The translations under genes and the position numbers were made by a program. Shown piece by piece: positions 319-63,805 of a stretch of 64,000 bases of DNA (positions within the stretch are counted from its first letter, which is position 1; each line of letters opens with the position of its first letter). Source of the DNA: Eledone cirrhosa (lineage: Eukaryota); the NCBI GenBank assembly GCA_964016885.1, contig OZ024755.1, positions 37,758,001-37,822,000 of the forward strand, given 5' to 3'. The notes below the pieces were generated by a model. The model made no database searches. It worked only from the letters and a program-made list of their open reading frames with translations, and had not been told where the DNA came from.

Positions 319-1350
319 GTGAGGAGGTTTACCTCTAAAATTGTCAAGAAGGCCAAGGGTGCCTTAGTAACACCCAGTAACACCTTTGTCAGCTGCTCTC
401 CAACTATCTATTTAAAGCTGTATATAGCTATGGTGTGGCTACACTTAGAATTTGCCTCACCAGTCTGGAACCCCTGTTTTGCTCAGAATTTTGATCTCCT
501 GGAAACTGTTCAGACTCATGCAACCAAATGAAAACCCTCCATCAGGCATCTACCACCATACTCTGAATGCCTTAATCCCTGGGCAAGGATACATTAAAGC
601 TCTGACGCCTGGCAACTGACATAATAGACACCCACAAGATTATTACCCATCTTTCCAGCAACAACCCTGGGTACCTTTTTGAATTCCATGTCTAACACCT
701 GTGGATATGCTTACACAATCAGAAAACAGTACAGCTCCCATGATGTTTGGAAACACTTTTTCACACTCAGTGTTGCTGAAGCATGGAACAAACTACCTGC
801 ATCAGTTGTTAGTTGTCGGGACACTGTATCTTTTAAAACCTCCATGGAACAAACTACCTGCATCAGTTGTTAGCTGTCAAGACACTGCATTCTTTAAAAC
901 CTCCATGGAACTAACTACCTGCATCAGTTGTTAGCTGTCAAGACACTGCATCCTTTAAAACCTCCATGGAACAAACTACCTGCATCAGTTGTTAGCTGTC
1001 AAGACACTGCATCCTTTAAAACCTCCATGGAATAAACTACCTGCATCAGTTGTTAGTTGTCGAGACACTGCATCCTTTAAAACCTCCATGGAACAAACTA
1101 CATGCATCAGTTGTTAGCTGTTGGGACACAGCATCCTTCAAAACCTCCCATGCATCCCGAAATTCGCCAACACTCCACCTGATATTCCCCCTCCATACAC
1201 AAATGTGTGTGTGTGTATGTGTGGATATCATGACGCATACACTGTTCACTTTCCTGAAATTTGTACATTATTCTATGAACTATACATGCACCTTTGATGA
1301 GTTTTAGTGCACTTTTGATGAGTTTTAGTGCACTTTTCATTATTATTATA
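319..1350 (+). mobile_element. CR1-like LINE 3' fragment (degenerate)
   Basis: Translates to LYIAMVWLHLEFASPVWNP...LETVQ and AWNKLPASVV, collinear with the intact copy at 26931-27632; ends in (ATT)n. Confidence 0.85.
782..1152 (+). repeat. 61-bp tandem repeat (6 units) inside CR1 fragment
   Basis: CATGGAACAAACTACCTGCATCAG...AAAACCTC recurs at 61-bp spacing. Confidence 0.95.
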
Positions 1351-1366
1351 TATATATATATATAAT

Positions 1367-1668
1367 GAAGGTACGTGGCTGAGTGGTTAGAGAATTTGAT
1401 TTGCAATCGTGAGGTTGTGAGTTTGAATCCCGGGCTGTGTGATGTATTACGTCATTGAGCAAAACACTTTATTTCATGTTGCTCTTTCTGCTTGGATTTG
1501 CGGCCAGTAGTTAGTATTAGCAATTGGAAAGACCAATAGAAACATTGCTTCCTCAGTCTGATTTGATGAGCTCCACTCCACTCGTTAGTCGATCGACAAG
1601 ATCCCAGACCTTATTCGCTTAACGAGTGGAGTGGAGCTCATCAAATCAGACTGAGGAAGCAATGTTTC
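1367..1668 (+). mobile_element. tRNA/CORE-like SINE (family B) with fold-back tail, in (TA)n
   Basis: A box TGGCTGAGTGG, B-box-like GTTTGAATCC, central TTGAGCAAAACACTT; perfect 49-bp inverted repeat 1539-1587/1620-1668. Confidence 0.75.
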
Positions 1669-1751
1669 CATATATATATATATATCTTACAGTCGATGGA
1701 CAAGATCCCAGACCTTATTCGCTTAACGAGTGGAGTAGAGCTCATCAATTC

Positions 1752-1801
1752 AAGAAATTTTAGCCTGAGTATTGATGTCAATACTCAGGCTAAAATTTCT
1801 T
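1752..1801. repeat. Perfect 24-bp-arm palindrome
   Basis: AAGAAATTTTAGCCTGAGTATTGA-tg-TCAATACTCAGGCTAAAATTTCTT. Confidence 0.95.
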
Positions 1802-2805: not shown

Positions 2806-3334
2806 GTCTGAAGAGGTCATAGCTGTTGAATTGTGGCTATCACCTCTTCTAACTGTCTGAAGAGGTCATAGCTGTTGAATTGTGGCTATCACCTCTTCTA
2901 ACTGTCTGAAGAGGTCATAGCTGTTGAATTGTGGCTATCACCTCTTCTAACTGTCTGAAGAGGTCATAACTGTTGAATTGTGGCTATCACCTCTTCTAAA
3001 TGTCTGAAGAGGTCATAGCTGTTGAATTGTGGCTACCACCTCTTCTAACTGTCTGAAGAGGTCATAGCTGTTGAATTGTAGCTATCACCTCTTCTAAATG
3101 TCTGAAGAGGTCATAGCTGTTGAATTGTAGCTATCACCTCTTCTAACTGTCTGAAGAGGTCATAGCTGTTGAATTGTGGCTATCACCTCTTCTAACTGTC
3201 TGAAGAGGTCATAACTGTTGAATTGTGGCTATCACCTCTTCTAACTGTCTGAAGAGGTCATAGCTGTTGAATTGTAGCCATCACCTCTTCTAACTGTCTG
3301 AAGAGGTCATAGCTGTTGAATTGTGACTATCACC
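2806..3334 (+). repeat. 49-bp tandem repeat (about 11 units) of a hammerhead 5' half
   Basis: Unit GTCTGAAGAGGTCATAGCTGTTGAATTGTGGCTATCACCTCTTCTAACT; each unit is a hairpin. Confidence 0.95.
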
Positions 3335-3346: not shown

Positions 3347-3734
3347 CAATGAAAAAAGTAAATTATGAAATGTTGACTTATACCTCTTGTTTATAAATTT
3401 ACTCAGGAATTAATAGACCCTCCTGTGGACTTCGTTGAGTGTTCTACCCTGCATACTGAAGTGTTGGTGTTAACACATAATCTAATTTATATATATATAT
3501 ATATAAAGGAAGGCAAAACTCCTGGGTTTTTACCTTCCTTTATGCCCACTCTGCTTCTCCCTATACATAGAATACTACCCATATTTATGTATATATCATC
3601 ATCATCATCATACCTGCTTGCAAGGGTGGGATGGGTCCTATTCAGCACAGCATCTCTCCAGTATTACCTGGTTAACAATTCATGTGGTTATGGTGTGATC
3701 TACCGACACAGATGCCTTCAGCATCTCAGCAGCT

Positions 3735-4345
3735 ATACCCGATGGACCGGATGTCCATGGGAACTTCTGTATGTGGATGATCTTACACTTATAGCTGAAT
3801 CTATAGCGGAACTAAAGAAGAAATTCCAAACATGGAAGCAGGGACTAGAAAGAAGGTGTCTCAAAGTCAACCTGACAAAGACTAAGGTCCTCGTAAGTAG
3901 ACGAGAAAACAGAACCCAAATCCCCTCAGGGAAATGGCTTTGCTCAATATGTAGGAAAGGTGTTGTAGGTAGGAACTCCATCCTCTGTCCCAAGTGCCAA
4001 CTATGGGTACACAAGAGATGTAGTGGGATCTCAGGAAGCTTTGCTAAGAATGTAGGCTTTACATGTAGCAGCTGCACCGGGACAGTAAATAGCAAACAGC
4101 CACAGGAAACAAGCACTACCAAACTCTGGGAGAGCTCTGTAGAAACAGTAGACAGCTTCTGCTACCTAGGTGACCGAATTAGCAGCAGAGAGGGGTGTTC
4201 TGAAAGTACAGTAACCAGGGTAAGAACGGGATGGAATAAGTTCAGGGAGCTACTACCACTGCTAGCTGCAAAATGCTTTTCTCTAAAAATGAAAGGCAAA
4301 CTGTATGATGTGTGCATACGAACAACAATGTTACATAGTAGTGAG
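3735..4345 (+). pseudogene. RTE-clade RT fragment
   Basis: [12 protein letters not shown]...CSICRKG...WVHKRC...DSFCYLG, homologous to ORF 57178-58809. Confidence 0.9.
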
Positions 4346-4567
4346 AAAACATTTAATGAATCACAGAGAAAGTCACATTTTCTTTTGCTCTCAGCATTTT
4401 TAAATACATCAACATAGTGAAGTAGGCATGGCTGTGTGGTTAAGGAGTTCGCTTCACAAGCACATGATTCTGGGTTTAGTCCCTCTGCACAGCACCTTAG
4501 GCAAGTACCCTGGATTGAGCAATGCCTTGTAAGTGGAATTTAATAGATGAAAACTGTAGACACCCAT

Positions 4568-10162: not shown

Positions 10163-11245
10163 ATCATCATCACCATCATCATCACCGTTTTACGTCCGTT
10201 CTTCCATGCTAGCATGGGTTAGATGGGTTGTCCTGTTGTGGGCAGTGTCTGGTCGGCTGACCATGCCTTACTCATACAGGAACTGATTTTGGGTTGATTT
10301 CTACAGCTGGATGCCCTTCCTAACACCAACCTCGTTTACAGTGAGTGCTGGGTGCTTTTTTCCGCGGCGCCTACACGTGCACTTTACAGTGTGGGCTGGG
10401 TGCTTCTTTGCCGTGGCACCTCCACGACCACTTTGCAGTGGGAGGGTGTGGGGGCATATTGTCTATATGCTTCAGCTTGTACCCATGGGAGGTCGGGTAC
10501 TCTGTATTACTGCATGATGCCAGAGGTCACGGTTGTGTGTCATCGCCTTTGAGAGGTGTAATTGGGTAAGGTCGGCTTTTATCACCTCATCCTAGGTCTT
10601 CTTGGGTCTCCCCACTCCGTGGTTTCCATTGACTTCTAGTGCTCTGCACTTTTTTATGCAGCTGTCATCCTTCATACGCATCACATCTCCATACCAACGC
10701 AACTGCCTCTCCTGCACACATCATTTGATTCCTCTTATTCTCAGTCTCTCTCTCAATTCATTTATGCTTTGCCGTTCGCGTATATTAATATTACACATCC
10801 ATCGGAACATGCAGGCTTCGTTTCTTTCTAATCTACGTAAGTCTTCCACAGACAGCACCCAGGTCTCACAACCATGTAACATTGCTGTTCGTATACACGC
10901 ATCATACAGTCTGCCTTTCATTTTGAGGGAAAAGCCTTTTGCAGCTAGCAGTGGCAGTAGTTCCCTGAACTTCTTCCATGCCGTTCTTACCCTAGTTATT
11001 GTAGTTTCTGAACACCCACCTCTGCTGCTAATTTGGTCACTTAGGTAGCAGAAGCTGTCTACTGTTTCTACAGAGCCCTCCCAGAGATTGGTGGTACTTG
11101 TTTCCTGTGGCTGTTTGCTGCTTGCTGTCCCAGCACAGCTGCTACATGTGAAGCCTACATTCTTAATTAAGCTTCCTGAGATCCCGCTACATCTCTTGTG
11201 TATCCATTGTTTGCATTTGGGGCAAAAAATGGAGTTCCTACGTAC
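10163..11245 (-). mobile_element. RTE LINE 3' fragment
   Basis: [21 protein letters not shown]...RLERNEACM; 3' UTR and (GAT)n tail. Confidence 0.9.
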
Positions 11246-11329
11246 ATATATAGTATATATAGAGTAATCTAAATGATAAGTGAGATAAAACCTTTACAAT
11301 GAAAATATAATAGTATATATAAAATAACG

Positions 11330-18013: not shown

Positions 18014-18039
18014 TATATATATATATGTATATATATATA

Positions 18040-18253
18040 AGGCGTGTGACTGAGTGGTTAGAGAATTGCATTCGCAATTGTGAGGTTGTGAGTTCGATTT
18101 CTGGACCAGGCGATGCGTTATGTCCTTGATCAAGACACTTTATTTCACGTTGCACCGTCTACCTGGAGTTGCGACCGATAGATAGTATTCGCAATTGGAA
18201 AGACCAACAGAAACATTGTTTCCTCGGTCCGATTTGACGAAAGTCGATTGCCA
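18040..18253 (+). mobile_element. tRNA/CORE-like SINE family B in (TA)n
   Basis: TGACTGAGTGG..GTTCGATT..TGTCCTTGATCAAGACACTTTA; structured tail shared with copies at 44482 and 1367. Confidence 0.8.
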
Positions 18254-18280: not shown

Positions 18281-18712
18281 TACGATATTAACAAATGGAA
18301 ACTATATTTATAAAACCATATCTATTTTATTATACATATTTAAAGGATACCATGTTAAATTATGGTATGCTTTCATCAGACAAAATACAATATAAACCAG
18401 TTTTATAAATAAACATTGACGTACCCTTTGAAAAAGCAACCGTTACTTTTGGAAGACATCAAGCAAAAGTAACGGTTGCTTTTTGAAAGGGTACGTCAAT
18501 GTTTATTTATAAAACTGGTTGATATTGTATTTTGTCTGATGAAAGCATACCATAATTTAACATGGTATCCTTGAAATATGTATAATAAAATAGATATGGT
18601 TTTATAAATATTTGTTAATATCGTATATTTACTCCAAATACTTGTCGAGTGCTTTATATCAGTTATAAAATATTTGCTTGTTGTATCCCAACAATTTAAA
18701 TAGAACTTTTGC
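18281..18712 (+). mobile_element. Short fold-back Penelope-like insertion (family H2)
   Basis: Inverted arms about 18281-18451/18464-18625 plus a 90-bp unique tail, flanked by (TA)n. Confidence 0.75.
18528..18592 (+). ncRNA. Minimal hammerhead ribozyme (H2)
   Basis: TATTTTGT-CTGATGA-AAGCATACCAT..ATGGTATCCTT-GAAA-TATGTAT-A-ATAAAATA. Confidence 0.8.
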
Positions 18713-23967: not shown

Positions 23968-23976
<9 letters not shown>

Positions 23977-24460
23977 AGATCAAAAGATGGTTAAATGAGT
24001 TCCATGTATTTTATTATGCGCATTTCAAAAACAAATATCATCATGCAATAACATTTGTGTTTTCATCAGATAAAATAGGAAGACATGATATGAAGGTTAA
24101 AAACACTTGTGGATAGTGCAGTTTTAAATCAACATATGAAAAGTAGTTTTAGATTGATGTGTGATATTGGGGAAAAAAAAGATTTTGAGGGGGGGGGGGT
24201 AGGAGATGAGAGTAAAAAGTGGAGGGGGAGGAGTATAATGAGGAAGGATGAGATAGGAGGAGAGATGGGTGATAGAGAGAGAGAGATAGCTTTTATAACT
24301 GAGAAAAATATATTGTTTTACATAGAGAAAAATACATGGAACTCATTTAACCATCTTTTGATCTTATATATTATGTATACTCCAGTCCTACAAACTGTAG
24401 AGTGCTTCTTATCCGATATCTGCATTGCTTTATTGTACTACAATAAAACTCACCTCCTAC
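23968..24460. mobile_element. Penelope-like fold-back remnant (family H3)
   Basis: About 23968-24012 is inverted relative to about 24329-24374; (TA)n flanks; hammerhead inside. Confidence 0.65.
24007..24077 (-). ncRNA. Minimal hammerhead ribozyme (H3)
   Basis: TATTTTAT-CTGATGA-AAACACAAATGTTA..TGATATTTGTTTTT-GAAA-TGCGCAT-A-ATAAAATA; perfect 8-bp stem I, palindromic ATGCGCAT. Confidence 0.85.
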
Positions 24461-25829: not shown

Positions 25830-25887
25830 TATAATAATAATAATAATACAAGGATGAATGGTTACCCCTTCATTACGTTTATTGGTT

Positions 25888-25972
25888 AGTGACACGCGTT
25901 TCGCTATTGATCAGTTCAAGGTTTGATCTGTATCGATCTGGCCTGACTCTGATATCTGAAGCTCGTCAGACC
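25888..25972 (-). ncRNA. Hammerhead ribozyme motif (H4)
   Basis: GGT-CTGACGA-GCT..AGC-GAAA-CGCGTGT-C-ACT; weak stem I. Confidence 0.6.
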
Positions 25973-26360: not shown

Positions 26361-26698
26361 ATCATCATCATCATAATTTTACGTCCGCTTTTCCCTGCTT
26401 GCAAGGGTGGGACGGGAACTGATGCTGGCTTGATTTCTACAGCTGGATGCCCTTCCTAACACCAACCTCATTTACAGTGAGTGCTGGGTGCTTTCTTGCT
26501 GTGGCACCTCCACGACCACTTTGCAGTGGAATGATAGGGACCCCAGTCGCTATCATCTCATTTCTACAGCTGAGTAAACTGGAGCAATGTGAAATAAAGT
26601 GTCTTGCTCAAGGAAACAACACATCACCCGGTCTGAGAATTGAACTCACAACCTTTCGATTGCAAGGCCAATGCTCTAACCACTAAGCCATGTGCCTC
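26361..26698 (-). mobile_element. tRNA/CORE-like SINE family C with RTE tail
   Basis: Reverse complement of 48379-48725. Confidence 0.85.
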
Positions 26699-26702
26699 TA
26701 TA

Positions 26703-26883
26703 TAACAAAGAGGGTGTGGTAAGATACCAGGTGGACTCTAATGCACTAAAGTACTCAATAGTTACGGTAGTAGAGAGGGTAATTGGAGAAGAGTCAGGAC
26801 CACGATGGCTGAGCTCCGGCCCTTTCGACAGCTGTATCTGAACTAGCTGTTGAAATGGCCGGAGCTCAACCATTGGGGTCCTG
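26703..26883 (-). mobile_element. Fold-back insertion (H13)
   Basis: Palindrome centred near 26838 with GAAA-stem-III motif. Confidence 0.6.
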
Positions 26884-26899
26884 TCTCTTTTCCTCTCTT

Positions 26900-28232: not shown

Positions 28233-28478
28233 TAACAAAGGAATTGCGGTAAGGAACCCAGTGGACCATAACGCACCAGAGTACTCAATACTTAGGGTAG
28301 TAGAGTGGGTAATAGGAGAAAGTATAACCCCGACGGCAGAGCTCAAGCCGTTTCGACGGCTATTTCTGGACCTTAGTCCAGAAATAGCCGTCGAAATAGC
28401 CGTCAAAATTTCTGGACCTTAGTCCAGAAATAGCATTCGAAATGGCTTGAGCTCTGCCGTCGGGGTCATACTTTCTCA
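28233..28478 (-). mobile_element. Fold-back insertion (H13)
   Basis: Duplicated hairpin TTTCTGGAC-CTTA-GTCCAGAAA at the centre; (TA)n flanks. Confidence 0.65.
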
Positions 28479-31668: not shown

Positions 31669-31685
31669 TTATATATATATATTTA

Positions 31686-32057
31686 TATTATTCAAAATGT
31701 TAACAAATGAAAAATATTCTCATAATCAAAATATATACTTTATTATTTGGATTTCAAAGGTACTGTGTTGTTTTTTCAGTACGTCCTCGTCAGACAAAAT
31801 ATATGATTTGATATATGACATACCGCTACGGTCTTGATTATACAATTCCAGTATTGGCAGATGAGGACATACTGAAAAAACAACACTACCTTTGAAATAT
31901 ATATATAATAAAGTATATATTTTGATTATGAGAATATTTTTCATTTGTTAATATTTTGAATAATATTAAAAACTTCAGGAAAACTTTCTGTTGTGTGCTT
32001 CTAATCTATTGTAAAATTGTATTCATTGAGTAATCAACGAACCACACTAATCTTTAG

Positions 32058-33715: not shown

Positions 33716-33826
33716 TGGGACAAAACCGTCCAACCCATGCCAGCGTGGAAGATGGACGTTAAATGATGATGACATATTATATATATATATATTAATAAAT
33801 GGAAACTATATTTATAAAACCATAAT

Positions 33827-33892
33827 TATTTTATTATATATATTTCGAGGGCAACCAAGGCAAATTATGGTGCGCTTTCATCAGATAAAATA
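33827..33892 (-). ncRNA. Minimal hammerhead ribozyme (H2 family)
   Basis: TATTTTAT-CTGATGA-AAGCGCACCA..TGGTTGCCCTC-GAAA-TATATAT-A-ATAAAATA. Confidence 0.8.
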
Positions 33893-33972
33893 CTTATCAA
33901 ATTTTCATCAGATAAAATACGTTATAAAATGTTTAAGCTTGTTGAATCCCAACAAATTAAATATAACCTCTG

Positions 33973-34243
33973 CATCATCATCATCATCATCATCATTTTA
34001 CGTCTGCTTTTCCCTGCTTGCAAGGGTGGGACGAGAACTGATGCTGGCTTGATTTCTACAGCTGGATGCCCTTCCTAACACCAACCTCATTTACAGTGAG
34101 TGCTGGGTGCTTTTTTGCCATGGCACCTCCACGACCACTTTGCAGTGGAATGATAGGGACCCCAGTCCTTATCATCTTATTTCTACAGCTGAGTAAACTG
34201 GAGCAATGTGAAATAAAGTGTCTTGCTCAAGGAAACAACACAT
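33973..34243 (-). mobile_element. SINE C, 5'-truncated
   Basis: Matches 48379-48725 without the tRNA head. Confidence 0.8.
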
Positions 34244-34400
34244 AACAACGCATATATATATATATATATATTTTATCCCGGGTTCAATCGGGGGTAACCA
34301 CAGTAAGTAAGGTACTCAATACATAGCAGAGTATAAATATTTAATATAGAAATGGCTTCTACAGGACTAGGTCTGTTTCATTCGGGAGAAATCATCAAGT

Positions 34401-43550: not shown

Positions 43551-44249
43551 TACTTTCACTATACTTTCCCATTCTTCAAAACATCTACTAGTAAATTCTA
43601 CAGAAGCCCTGTCAGCTCTGTCAAAACTTCATATGGCTGGCAGGTTACATTATCAGGGATTTTTTTGCTATTTCAAAACACTTTTACTGAATTCTGCCCT
43701 TCTTTCTTCTTTCGCTAGCTACATAGGTACAGTAGATGAATGACTATAGTACTTTATTACTGATTTTTAACCCTGATTTTTAACCCATATTTGTAATGAA
43801 AGGAACTGCCTAGGATTTTCCAATGATTTTGAAAATAATCAAAAATTTGGAAGAATTTAGGTAATATAGCTGAAATTTTGATTATTTATTTGGTGTTTGG
43901 AACATAATTTAAAGAAGGTTCTCACGATAAATTATGATGGGATTTTTTCAATTTAAAAAAAAAAGATTGTTTAGCTAAATATAACCACTTTAATACTTTC
44001 AATACCCTATTTCTAATGAAAGACACTATGATTTCCAAGGGAGAGGGAGAGAGGAGTCCTATTTGGTGAGGGGAGGGTGATCTATTTGATAAATGGGTGC
44101 AGGGCATTCACCCCCCCCCCCCAACCACCACCATCCTCCGATAAATCCATCCCTGGTCTGTGTAATACTCTGTCATTCAGTTAGTAGTAGTTCTATTGAT
44201 TAAACAACTGGAATACTCATCATCAAAACTGATGAAGGAGCCATTTGCC

Positions 44250-44327
<78 letters not shown>

Positions 44328-44481: not shown

Positions 44482-44700
44482 TGAAGGCGTGTGGCTGAGT
44501 GGTTAGAGAATCGGATTCGCAATCGTAAGGTTGTGAGTTCGATTCCTGGATCAGGCAATGCGTTATGTCCTTGAGCAAGACACTTTATTTCACGTTGTTC
44601 CTTCTACCTGGAGTTGCGACCGATAGATAGTATTAGCAATTGGAAAGACCAACGGAAACATTGTTCCCTCGGTCCGATTTGACGAAAGTCGATCGTTCCT
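44482..44700 (+). mobile_element. tRNA/CORE-like SINE family B in (TA)n
   Basis: TGGCTGAGTGG, GTTCGATTCC, TGTCCTTGAGCAAGACACTTTA, hairpin-rich tail. Confidence 0.85.
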
Positions 44701-45196: not shown

Positions 45197-45545
45197 ATCA
45201 TCATCATCATCATCATCATTTCATTTTACGTCCGCTTTTTCCCTGCTTGCAAGGGTGGAACGGGAACTGACTCTGGCTTGATTTCTACAGCTGGATGCCC
45301 TTCCTAACACCAACCTCATTTACAGTGAGTGCTGGGTGATTTTTTGTCGTGGCACCTCCATGACCACTTTGCAGTGGGATGATATGGACCCCAGTCCCTA
45401 TCATCTCATTTCTACAGCTGAGTAAACTGGATCAATGTGAAATAAAGTGTCTTGCTCAAGGAAACAACACATCACCTGGTCTGAGAATTGAACTCACAAC
45501 CTTTCGATTGCAAGGCCAATGCTCTAACCACTAAGCCATGTGCTT
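45197..45545 (-). mobile_element. SINE C
   Basis: Near-identical to 26361-26698. Confidence 0.85.
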
Positions 45546-45899
45546 TCCTGTCAGAAATATATCTATAAACTCCTGTTGCACATTTTCCCCAATGAAAGTA
45601 CAAGAAAAAACCAGGGTGTGACTTAAATACTAGACATACAAAACCTCCATTCAGAATATATATTACATTGTTAATGTTGTATGGAGGTGTGACATATCTA
45701 CTGGTGCAACATATCTGCTAGTGTGACTTATATACAATATATATGGTACTTTTTGTAAACTCAGAGATATACAGTGTCATTAGCTTTCTTATACAAGAGT
45801 GGGGTTGGCTGGTTCTTCAAATTTATGTCTTTTATGAATTTTGGAGAAAATATTTTTACTTCTGATTGATTTAGATGTATCATCAACCATATAATGAAA

Positions 45900-48378: not shown

Positions 48379-48725
48379 GGAGGCACATGGCTTAGTGGTT
48401 AGAGCATTGGCCTTGCAATCGAAAGGTTGTGAGTTCAATTCTCAGACCGGGTGATGTGTTGTTTCCTTGAGCAAGACACTTTATTTCCCATTGCTCCAGT
48501 TTACTCAGCTGTAGAAATGAGATGAAAGGACTGGGGTCCCTATCATTCCACTGCAAAGTGGTTGTGGAGGTGCCACGACAAAAAATCACCCAGCACTCAC
48601 TGTAAATGAGGTTGGTGTTAGGAAGGGCATCCAGCTGTAGAAATCAAGTCAGCATCAATTCCCGTCCCACCCTTGCAAGCAGGGAAAAGTGGACGTAAAA
48701 TGAAATGATGATGATGATGATGATG
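48379..48725 (+). mobile_element. SINE C: tRNA head, CORE-like centre, RTE-derived tail
   Basis: TGGCTTAGTGG, GTTCAATTCT, CCTTGAGCAAGACACTTTA; tail matches the RTE UTR near 23277-23430; (GAT)n. Confidence 0.85.
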
Positions 48726-56822: not shown

Positions 56823-59211
56823 TCATCATCATCATCATCATCAACGTTTAACGTCCGTGTTCCACGCTTGCATGGGTTTGGACGGGGGTAGTCCCACTTG
56901 AGGCAAGAGTGATTGTCTTGCTCGCATAGGACTGTCTGGCAGGTTTTCTACAGTTGGATGCCCTTCCTAACACCAACCACATTTACAGTGTGGGTCTGGG
57001 AGGTTTTTACCGTGTTGCCTACACGGCCACATTACAGCGTGGACTGTGTGTTTTTTTGTCGTGACACCTACACGATCTCATTTGTTTCGGCCTGGATGGC
57101 GCGGCACCAACATAACTTTACATAGAACGGGGTGGTGTGGATGGGGTGGGGGTGGTGGCGGGACGGGGTGTAGTTTGTTAGAGATGCCTACTGGCAAGGC
57201 GGGTCTTCTCTGTTACTGAGTACCGCCAAAGGTCACGGTCCAGTGACATTGTCTTGGAGAGGTGTAAGTGTGTGAGGTCGGAGTTTATCAGCTCATCCCA
57301 TGTTTTTCTAGGTCTGCCTATTCCGTGGCTACCGTCTATCTTTATTGCCCTGCACTTTGTAATACAGCTATCGACTTTCATGCGCATCACGTGTCCATAC
57401 CAACGCAGCCTTCTCTCGAGTAAACAACATCTGATCCCTCTTATCTCTAATTTTTTCCTTAGTTCGTTTATGCTTTGCCGTTCACGTATATTACTGTTAC
57501 ACATCCAGCGGAGCATGCAAGCTTCGTTCCTCTCTAGTCTGCGTATATCCTCTGCACACAATGCCCAGGTCTCACTACCATGCAACATTGCTGTTCGTAT
57601 GCAGGCATCGTACAACCTGCCTTTCATTTTTAGGGAGAACCCTTTAGCAGCTAATAGTGGTATAAGCTCTCTGAACTTTTTCCAACCAGTTCTGACTCTA
57701 GATACAGTACTTTCAGAGCACCCTCCCCCACTGCTGATTTTATCGCCCAGGTAACGGAAGCTGTCCACTATTTCTATAGAACCCTCTGCGCAATTGAAAG
57801 AGCTAGTATTTTGTGGGCACTTGCTGCTACTTATTGCACCAGAACACCGGCCACATGTAAAGTCTATGTTCTTAGTTAGCTTACCTGTGATCCCACTACA
57901 TCTTTTATGCACCCATACTTTGCATTTAGGACATAAGATGGAGTTTCTACCTACGCCTTTCCTACATACCGAGCACGACCATTTCCCAGAAGGGACCGCC
58001 GCCTTGTTTTCTTTCCTACAAACTAGAACTTTGGTCTTAGCCAGGTTAATTTTAAGTCCTTTTGACTCTAGGCCGTGCTTCCATGTTTGGAATTTCTTCT
58101 CTAGCTCGGCCATTGATTCCGCTATGAGTGTCAGGTCGTCTGCGTATAGGAGTTCCCATGGGCAGCCTGTCTTGAACTCCTCTGTTATAGCCTGAAGGGC
58201 AATAATAAATAGTAGGGGGCTGAGAACAGAGCCCTGATGGATGCCAACTTTTACGCTAAACTCTTCACTATATTCGTTGTTAATTCTAACCTTGCTGACT
58301 GTTTCTTTATACATGGCTTGTATAGCCCTCACAAGCCATTCGTCAACGCCTAGTTTTCTAAGAGCCCACCAGATAATGGAGCGGGGGACTCTGTCGAAGG
58401 CTTTCTCCAGGTCGACAAAAGCTAAGTAGAGGGGTTTACCTTTAGCTAGGTACTTCTCCTGTAGTTGTCGTACTATGAAAAGAGCGTCTGTGGTGCTTTT
58501 GCCTGACACAAACCCGAACTGCATTTCATCTAGATCAATTCTCTCTCTGATTAGTTGCGCTATTACTTTTTCCGTGACCTTCATGACCTGGTCGATTAAT
58601 TTAATGCCTCTATAGTTACTCCTATCTAGGGCGTCTCCTTTACCCTTATAACAGTTAACGATGATGCTGCTATGCCAGTCCTTCGGAACAACCCCATTCT
58701 GTACGACTTGGTTAACTATGCGGGTGACCATGGTGTGTCCCACCGTGCCAGATGCCTTCAGCATCTCAGCAACTATTTCCGAAGGCCCAGCCGCCTTACC
58801 AGTCTTCATTGATTGCCTTACTTATTATACTCCCTTCGACTAACACTGCTGGTCCCTCTATCGGGTCGATATGGGGGAGACTGTCTTTCTCCCATTTATT
58901 CTCCTCATTTAGTAGCCTTTCATAGTGACACTTCCAAGCTACCTTCTTATCAGTGTCGGTGATGGCAAGTATGCCATCATCGTTAAGTACACACTTCTCC
59001 CCGACAATATCACGGTTTTCCTTGACGCATTGCCTGGCAATCCTGAACACCTCACGTTTTTGGTCATCGCGTTGTAGAACATGCTTGAACTTTCTTTCCT
59101 CAGCTTCCCTTCTTGCTAAGTACACTTCTCTCCTAGCTTCCCTCCTGGCCACTTGATAGTCTACTCTACTTCCCCCATCCCGCCATACTTTCCAAGCCTG
59201 CCTTTTGGCCT
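56823..59211 (-). mobile_element. Young 5'-truncated RTE-clade LINE in (TA)n
   Basis: RT ORF, 3' UTR and (GAT)n tail; one frameshift near 58805; no endonuclease domain. Confidence 0.95.
57178..58809 (-). CDS. RTE reverse transcriptase (partial) with embedded Cys/His finger
   Basis: [46 protein letters not shown]; CxxC..CxxC..HxxC..CxxC. Confidence 0.93.
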
Positions 59212-60468: not shown

Positions 60469-60663
60469 CGAAGGAAATGTGGTAAGGAACCAGGTGGACC
60501 ATAACGCACCAAAGTACTCAATACTTGAGGTAGTAGAGTGGGTAATAGGAACCAGTAAGACCCCGACAGCTGAGCTCAAGCCGTTTCGACGGCTAATTCT
60601 GGAGTCCAGAATTAGCCATCGAAACGGCTTGAGCTCAGCTGTCGGGGTCTTACTGGTTCCTAT
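60467..60663 (-). mobile_element. Fold-back insertion (H13)
   Basis: Near-perfect 59-bp arms 60545-60603/60605-60663, (TA)n flanks. Confidence 0.7.
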
Positions 60664-60746
60664 ATATATATATATATATATACATGTATATATATATATA
60701 TATACAATATTAAATAAATGGAAAACTATATTTATAAAACCATATT

Positions 60747-60812
60747 TATTTCATTATATATATTTCGGGGATATCATATTAACAATATGCTATGCCTTCA
60801 TCAGACAAAATA
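60747..60812 (-). ncRNA. Minimal hammerhead ribozyme (H2 family)
   Basis: TATTTTGT-CTGATGA-AGGCATAGCATATT..AATATGATATCCCC-GAAA-TATATAT-A-ATGAAATA. Confidence 0.75.
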
Positions 60813-60975
60813 CAATATAAACAGTTTTATAGATAAATATATTCGACATACCGTAATAAACATCAACTTCATTATTTAATATTGTAAATATACTCCAAAT
60901 ATTTGTCGAGTGCTTTTATATCAGTTATAAATATTTACTAGTTGTAACCCAACAATTTTAAATATAACTTTACAT

Positions 60976-63335: not shown

Positions 63336-63380
<45 letters not shown>

Positions 63381-63382
<2 letters not shown>

Positions 63383-63805
63383 ATATATTAACAAATGGAA
63401 ACTATATTTATAAAACCATATTTATTTCATTATACATATTACAAGGACACCAAAGCAAACTATGGTGCGCTTTCATCAGATAAAATATAATATAGGTTAG
63501 TTTTATAAATAAATATTGACATACCCTTAAAAAATATCTATCTAAAAATATCCAGGAGATTCCAACCAGAATGGTTGCATTTTTTAAGGGTATGTCAATA
63601 TTTATTTATAAAACTAATCTATATTATATTTTATCTGATGAAAGCGCACCATAGTTTGCTCTGGTGGCCCTTGAAATATGTATAATGAAATAAATATAGT
63701 TTCCATTTGTTAATATATTGTATATTTACTCCAATAATTTGTTGAGTGTTTTATATCAGTTATAAAAATATTTAGCTTGTTGTATCCCAACAAATTAAAT
63801 ATAAC

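Follow-up and report, generated by a model that had tools for sequence, protein, structure and literature searches.

The 64-kb stretch of DNA analysed here (the window) contains three copies of a short interspersed element with a tRNA-like head and a CORE domain, referred to below as family B. The copies start at 1366, 18039 and 44482, span ~215–255 nt each, and could be aligned over ~200 nt of head and body. The first of them (the 1367 copy) was 81% identical to either of the others, which shared 93% identity with one another. Family B shares its tRNA-like head and ~40 nt of CORE-like sequence with a sister family, C; in the alignment, the two diverged after position 1484, and family C continues into a different tail that ends in (ATG)n. 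The sequence-only reading of this stretch had described three tRNA/CORE SINE copies lying in (TA)n and devoid of the family C tail, and both points were confirmed by alignment and by inspection of the flanks. The positions of the individual features are given in the table.

Features of the family B locus at 1348–1801 and the two further family B copies (window coordinates)
Feature	Position	Strand	Basis
Run of (TA)n upstream of the SINE, the target	1348..1363	.	sequence
tRNA-like head with A box (1376–1386) and mutated B box (~1420–1430)	1366..1444	+	alignment
5′ part of the CORE domain, common to family C	1445..1484	+	alignment
Body specific to family B, with the 5′ side of the terminal hairpin	1485..1569	+	alignment; matches nothing else in the window
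Start of the long-tail insert; the forward copy ends here	1570..1587	+	10 of 24 listed contig pieces reach 1576–1587 from the CORE or head
Inverted spacer, the 3′ 32 nt of the long tail reversed	1588..1619	-	sequence; loose ends at 1589
Mirror arm, 49/49 identical to 1539–1587; together with the spacer it makes up the complete long tail and a hammerhead-like motif (box 1644–1638)	1620..1668	-	
(TA)8, probably a reversed copy of the original 3′ flank	1670..1685	.	sequence; inference
Second inverted long-tail copy with the element's own 3′ end	1686..1752	-	59/62 identical to the first (3 differences)
25-bp fold-back of another repeat reaching (TA)n at 1857	1752..1801	.	1787–1820 multi-copy in X1 and X4
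Full-length short-tail B copy flanked by TA runs	18039..18252	+	alignment
Full-length short-tail B copy flanked by TA runs, ending in a GAAA-capped hairpin	44482..44700	+	alignment; predicted fold

A and B boxes were visible in the head of every B and C copy, and we take this head to be tRNA-derived. Neither ARAGORN nor Rfam called a tRNA on the B head. The boxes support the assignment of family B as a Pol III-type tRNA/CORE SINE, which would be transcribed from them. The resemblance to CORE is confined to the 5′ part of the domain, where the 44482 copy matched BivaCORE-SINE1_RuDe at 24 of 27 nt by eye (PMC4824008 supplement). The element is short, non-coding and dispersed: besides the three window copies, between 5878 and 15537 read or contig records per run were aligned when four public runs (X1, X12, X4 and X5) were compared with 1345–1845 at 80% likeness. 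X1 and X12 carry one species label, X1 may be the window's own sample, and X4 and X5 represent two further organisms. The read evidence given below draws on 40 letter rows (of 122), 15 joints (of 101), 24 loose ends (of 1201) and 24 pieces (of 25231).

For the SINE heads (44500–44550 in B, 48400–48445 in C), structure prediction favoured refolding to a long rod closed by a GNRA loop over a cloverleaf, with z of −5.1 for B and −1.8 for C and at least one compensatory pair differing between the two families. Family C copies ending in (ATG)n were located at 26370–26700 (−), 48379–48725 (+), 45200–45547 (−) and 34080–34250 (−); the 34247 copy of this family is 5′-truncated and starts at a TA run.

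All three B copies start no more than 3 nt from a (TA)n run, compared with ~1.6% of window positions lying within 5 nt after such a run, and the (TA)n preference claimed for the family therefore stands. In reads of X1, X12 and X4, the short tail continues into TATATA. The three copies and the loose ends of the reads point to targeting of (TA)n microsatellites, a trait that is not specific to Penelope-like elements (PLEs). The (TA)n flanks mask any target-site duplication, and none was discernible at the three copies.

The 1367 copy ends in the perfect 49-bp fold-back that had been noticed in it: residues 1539–1587 pair with 1620–1668 at 49 of 49 positions across a spacer of 32 nt, and the extension of the arms shows one difference, at 1538/1669. 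The two arms are oriented tail-to-tail, with their 3′ ends meeting, whereas the other two B copies are simple. The 1367 copy is old: over 195 alignment columns, it has 29 private differences, ten of them of the CpG type. Four of the 29 fall within the arm, and each of the two arms has them. The second inverted copy also has the letters found at 1612, 1630 and 1640. Since private letters recur in both arms and in the second copy, this locus is the likely source of the pieces, copied well after the insertion, and the fold-back looks younger than the SINE insertion. Arm-to-arm gene conversion could account for the first arm; the second copy is harder to explain in this way. A short template switch of type 3-1-2-4, as described in PMC5453318, yields an inverted repeat with an inverted spacer, and the succession of forward arm, inverted spacer and mirror arm resembles this layout. 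However, the model as set out there covers no serial events, and the fold-back needs at least three successive switches. In the first of these, the forward copy would have stopped at 1587 and 82 nt would have been copied backwards; the next switches would have added the TA run and the tail again, and then 25 nt of the adjoining repeat, giving the hairpin at 1752–1801. Such serial switches would have replaced the original 3′ end of the SINE.

The reverse transcriptase that moves family B must favour TA repeats, and its candidates are target-specific LINEs and PLEs. Two of the three B copies are simple and full length, which makes a LINE the more likely partner. R4/Dong elements prefer (TA)n targets. 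R4 is placed among the mostly target-specific LINE clades (PMC4640811), Dong-R4 leads the recent LINE insertions in Octopus vulgaris with 1129 (PMC13282606), and both CORE-SINEs and a Dong element are known from octopus (PMC4758252, PMC9115989, PMC10886601). SINE tails are described as usually being stem-loops recognised by the reverse transcriptase of the partner (PMC4824008, PMC5786205, PMC7245038). No element sharing the B tail was found in the 64-kb window. Searches with the tail motifs gave no match in the supplements of PMC9115989 (four of its eight files) and PMC5786205, three matches in metagenomes, all of them by chance and without likeness beyond the motif, and none in viral contigs and prokaryote genomes. 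No RNA run was present among the public runs listed as carrying the sequence. Pfam revealed no GIY-YIG domain in 20 of the 84 listed frames of the window, and RT/PHD pieces of LINEs were found. The LINE frames with a PHD finger lie at 57178–58821 (−), 3377–4417 (+) and 10721–11293 (−), the finger being C-terminal to the RT in the first two; relatives of the LINE frames are numerous in marine data at ~50–57% identity, the named animals being Hydractinia (57%) and Mercenaria (50%).

An alternative origin of the tail, which we regard as doubtful, is that the 3′ end of the SINE was taken from a (TA)n-targeting PLE of the Naiad, Hydra or Neptune type, that the hammerhead decayed in the master element, and that PLE proteins move the SINE. 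Such an origin would be compatible with the (TA)n preference listed for Octopus Naiad and Hydra-1 families and with the statement in PMC8557442 that Naiads do not carry canonical hammerheads. The tail can also be drawn in a full hammerhead topology, which recurs in only 0.4% of shuffles, many PLE-type hammerheads lie beside (TA)n in the window, and the second inverted copy and the next repeat stand head-to-head between TA runs. The geometry of the main fold-back, however, does not agree with this origin. As reported in PMC8557442, PLE insertions carry an inverted 5′-truncated copy at the 5′ end, so that the 3′ ends face outwards; in the hammerhead elements of the window at 18283–18623 and 63380–63721, the hammerheads face outwards and the tail is one-sided. 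In family B, the fold-back joins 3′ ends, and two of the three copies are simple and full length. Exact 8–9-nt motifs of the B tail were absent from the 3′ ends of the Naiad, Chlamys and Hydra elements in the available portion of the Craig et al. supplement, and the 3′ ends of Naiad_Obim and Naiad_Ovul look unrelated to it by eye. Moreover, the long tail is almost missing from X5, where the short form occurs, and the private letters common to all three pieces point to local copying. The mobilisation by Penelope machinery that had been proposed for the element is thus unlikely, the orientation of the fold-back being opposite to that of PLEs; a connection would run only through the common (TA)n target. 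A further scenario, likewise unlikely, has the tRNA/CORE SINE exchanging its LINE tail for the 3′ end of a (TA)n-targeting PLE, with the hammerhead silenced through refolding to a rod and with additional spread in the form of a minimal hairpin capped by GAAA; family B would then be a Pol III SINE carried by the telomerase-like machinery of PLEs.

A perfect inverted repeat may also arise from misassembly or from a chimeric read. The identity of the arms is what such an artefact would produce, and the fold-back junctions were not confirmed by reads, as no listed piece (15 of the 101 joints shown) spans the whole stretch. We nonetheless consider an artefact quite improbable: the second inverted copy differs from the first at 3 of 62 nt, the extension of the arms differs at 1538/1669, and the window holds many diverged fold-backs.

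In the public reads, the tail of family B was found in two lengths. The short tail departs from the 1367 copy at 1566, as seen in 1684 reads of X12, 70 contigs of X1 and 126 contigs of X4. The long block is multi-copy in X12, with a depth of ~630 at 1600–1616 and with the change at 1612 carried by reads with 112 different starts. Its summed contig depth was 35430 in X1, 13728 in X4 and 12 in X5, against 450000–670000 for the body at 1515–1531, these sums not being copy numbers. Ten of the 24 listed pieces are contigs, 13–20% divergent from the window, that run from the CORE or the head to 1576–1587; the bridging pieces reach only 7–18 nt into the tail, which is under the 31-letter rule of the alignment tool. 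Four contigs of X4 pass from body to tail in uninverted order, and on the mirror arm the depth continues from the long block into the common body. Loose ends at 1589, with an agreement of 0.39 (97 contigs of X1), mark the end of the element, and the long and short tails finish in the same motif. Since reads show the long tail in many copies and in continuity with the SINE body, it defines a SINE subfamily and not a nested insertion, and the claim that it belongs to the SINE is upheld. That the block at 1560–1748 is instead an independent small element inserted into the SINE appears very improbable. Its multiple copies, its near absence from X5 and the lack of a further block copy in the window would suit such an insertion, but the divergent contigs that carry it in line with the SINE body, the depth running into that body and the common terminal motif have already largely refuted it.

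Each of the three organisms has the short form; the long form was seen in two of them, the long tail being nearly missing from X5, and the short form may therefore be the older tail. The sequence-only reading derived the short copies from the hammerhead-like motif by deletion of stems II and III; they are indeed the same element without the inner segment, and the change may have run either way.

The motifs quoted for the mirror arm and for the short copies are present in the sequence, and the hammerhead likeness of the tail is real but weak. A strict hammerhead descriptor matched five sites in the window and none in 40 shuffles, and the B tail, which passes a relaxed descriptor only, was not among the five. 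With one mismatch per box and one slip allowed, chance gave 8 matches per 59.5 kb of shuffled window, and the same descriptor was satisfied by 0.4% of 3000 shuffles of the tail. The likeness is notable, but it was chosen after the fact among many repeat ends. Rfam reported no hammerhead on the tail at E ≤ 10, a weak blank, as the hammerhead of the window used as a control reached only E 0.71.

The core was measured against CUGANGA and GAAA and against the natural variant described at the core pair, U3-A8 (PMC4209133). Where C3-G8 or U3-A8 would be expected, U3 stands opposite G8 in all five window pieces, and none of the 40 listed rows (of 122) repairs either letter. In both window copies, GAAT stands in place of the GAAA box with its A15.1-U16.1 pair, and the would-be cleavage site is followed by an additional G. 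Among the rows listed, position 1612 is variable and the neighbouring core position 1613 is not; the change at 1612, present at 74–96% in X1, X12 and X4, weakens stem III. Three stems around an unpaired core can be drawn only with a slip and a bulge, at 10.8–16.8 kcal/mol above the minimum.

Instead, the tail is predicted to fold as a single rod hairpin. The rod fold has −15.2 kcal/mol for the window sequence. It reaches −18.8 kcal/mol when 1612 and 1630 take the letters most frequent in each of X1, X12 and X4, and −23.3 kcal/mol when five positions take the majority letter of X12, one of these letters being inferred from the mirror position; the hammerhead fold of the same three sequences has −4.4, −4.5 and −6.5 kcal/mol. 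At 1640, 1652 and 1559, the majority letter of X12 does not hold the majority in every contig set (1640: 34% in X1, 33% in X4). In the predicted rod, core A6 pairs with U16.1 at P ≥ 0.97, and the cost of leaving the core unpaired is 6.6–11.2 kcal/mol, compared with 0.4–4.9 kcal/mol for five canonical hammerheads of the window. All five family letters stabilise the rod, compared with 49% of 59 single transitions, although restoring G or C tends to stabilise any fold. We must also note that the stability of the rod is ordinary in comparison with shuffles (z −0.05 for the window sequence and −1.86 for the family letters, with 26 of 500 shuffles as stable). The short tail is predicted to form the base of the same stem, capped by GAAA (z −1.46). 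The proposal of a ribozyme 3′ module thus fails on a core that is non-canonical and unrepaired in the listed read letters, and on a predicted rod in which core letters are paired; as far as 40 of the 122 letter rows show, the consensus has no hammerhead core, an outcome that the sequence-only reading itself had named as a refutation. It is highly improbable that the long tail acts as a non-canonical hammerhead, perhaps in dimeric form, and trims the Pol III transcript ~10 nt short of its end: stems I–III are drawable, and PLE hammerheads of variant and dimeric type with low activity exist (PMC4209133), but U3 lies opposite G8, unlike the natural U3-A8, one A of GAAA is missing or replaced, a G is added after the cleavage site, no majority letter repairs either core position among the 40 listed rows, the fold lies 11–17 kcal/mol above the rod, and the short form is abundant though it lacks stems II and III.

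We rejected a hammerhead of type II, or one on the opposite strand, built on the CTGAGGA box at 1651, as this box has no GAAA partner and is missing from the other two copies. At 44130–44250, a CTGATGA box is placed ~14 nt before a TA run, like CTGAGGA at 1651, and the window contains nothing related to it; the mirror arm matched 44220–44250 at 65% over 52 nt (E 0.5), and this match was also discarded.

The window is rich in other repeats. At 18283–18623, 63380–63721, 31685–31966, 23970–24371, 60707–60840 and 33789–33900, repeats of the Penelope type lie beside (TA)n and carry canonical minimal hammerheads (CTGANGA...GAAA, short stem III); several of them are head-to-head fold-backs with a one-sided tail. 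At 25885–25972 (−), a solitary type I hammerhead whose loop II is long adjoins a TA run, and Rfam Hammerhead_1 matched it weakly (E 0.71). The 49-bp tandem array at 2808–3330 has CTGAAGA in every unit and GAAA after the last unit only, and is apparently a satellite grown from half a hammerhead. Repeats at 26785–26893, 28316–28477 and 60548–60660 end in a hairpin without a hammerhead, share a left flank motif and end at TA or TC runs; this family is possibly a non-autonomous DNA or rolling-circle element.

Taking these results together, family B is a tRNA-head CORE-SINE inserted in (TA)n. Its long or short tail, a predicted stem-loop, probably serves as the handle for a (TA)n-targeting reverse transcriptase, most likely that of a LINE, and the fold-back of the 1367 copy (1539–1752) probably arose by template switching during replication after insertion. 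Under such a scheme, Pol III transcription from the A and B boxes would run into (TA)n, the partner would nick TA repeats and bind the 3′ hairpin for target-primed reverse transcription, and the terminal stem-loop, in either length, would be the structure that its reverse transcriptase recognises.

Family B behaves as an ordinary CORE-SINE that exchanged its tail. Members of the CORE-SINE superfamily such as BivaCORE-SINE1 and octopus OR1/OR2 likewise have a tRNA head followed directly by the CORE, and PMC4824008 describes sister families that exchange tails, as B and C do. Family B differs from them in its CORE of only ~40 nt, its (TA)n sites and its tail of two lengths. It may already be described. 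The nearest precedent for a SINE with a ribozyme is the SINE-like hammerhead repeat of Schistosoma: in Sm-alpha and Sj-alpha, too, a promoter of the Pol III type precedes a 3′ part shaped like a hammerhead (PMC6765202). According to the same source, these repeats cleave in vitro and are often tandem, whereas family B is dispersed, has a broken core and occurs abundantly in a short form unlike a hammerhead. The Penelope, Neptune, Hydra and Naiad PLEs share with family B a (TA)n preference and inverted structures; however, their cores are CUGANGA/GAAA and their inversions are 5′-truncated with 3′ ends outwards (PMC8557442), while the core of B differs and its inversion is tail-to-tail. Animal retrozymes derived from PLEs are described as tandem, with complete hammerheads kept (bioRxiv 10.64898/2026.07.22.740005; PMC7761336). 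A full-text literature search, covering papers in part, found no published case of a SINE with a PLE partner.

The natural occurrence of long and short tails in family B points to the minimal 3′ structure that the partner needs, and this abundant family lends itself to tests of how SINE tails are recognised. Were the partner a PLE, SINE parasitism would extend beyond LINEs, and the element would offer a small substrate with which to study PLE integration, a cycle that is poorly understood.
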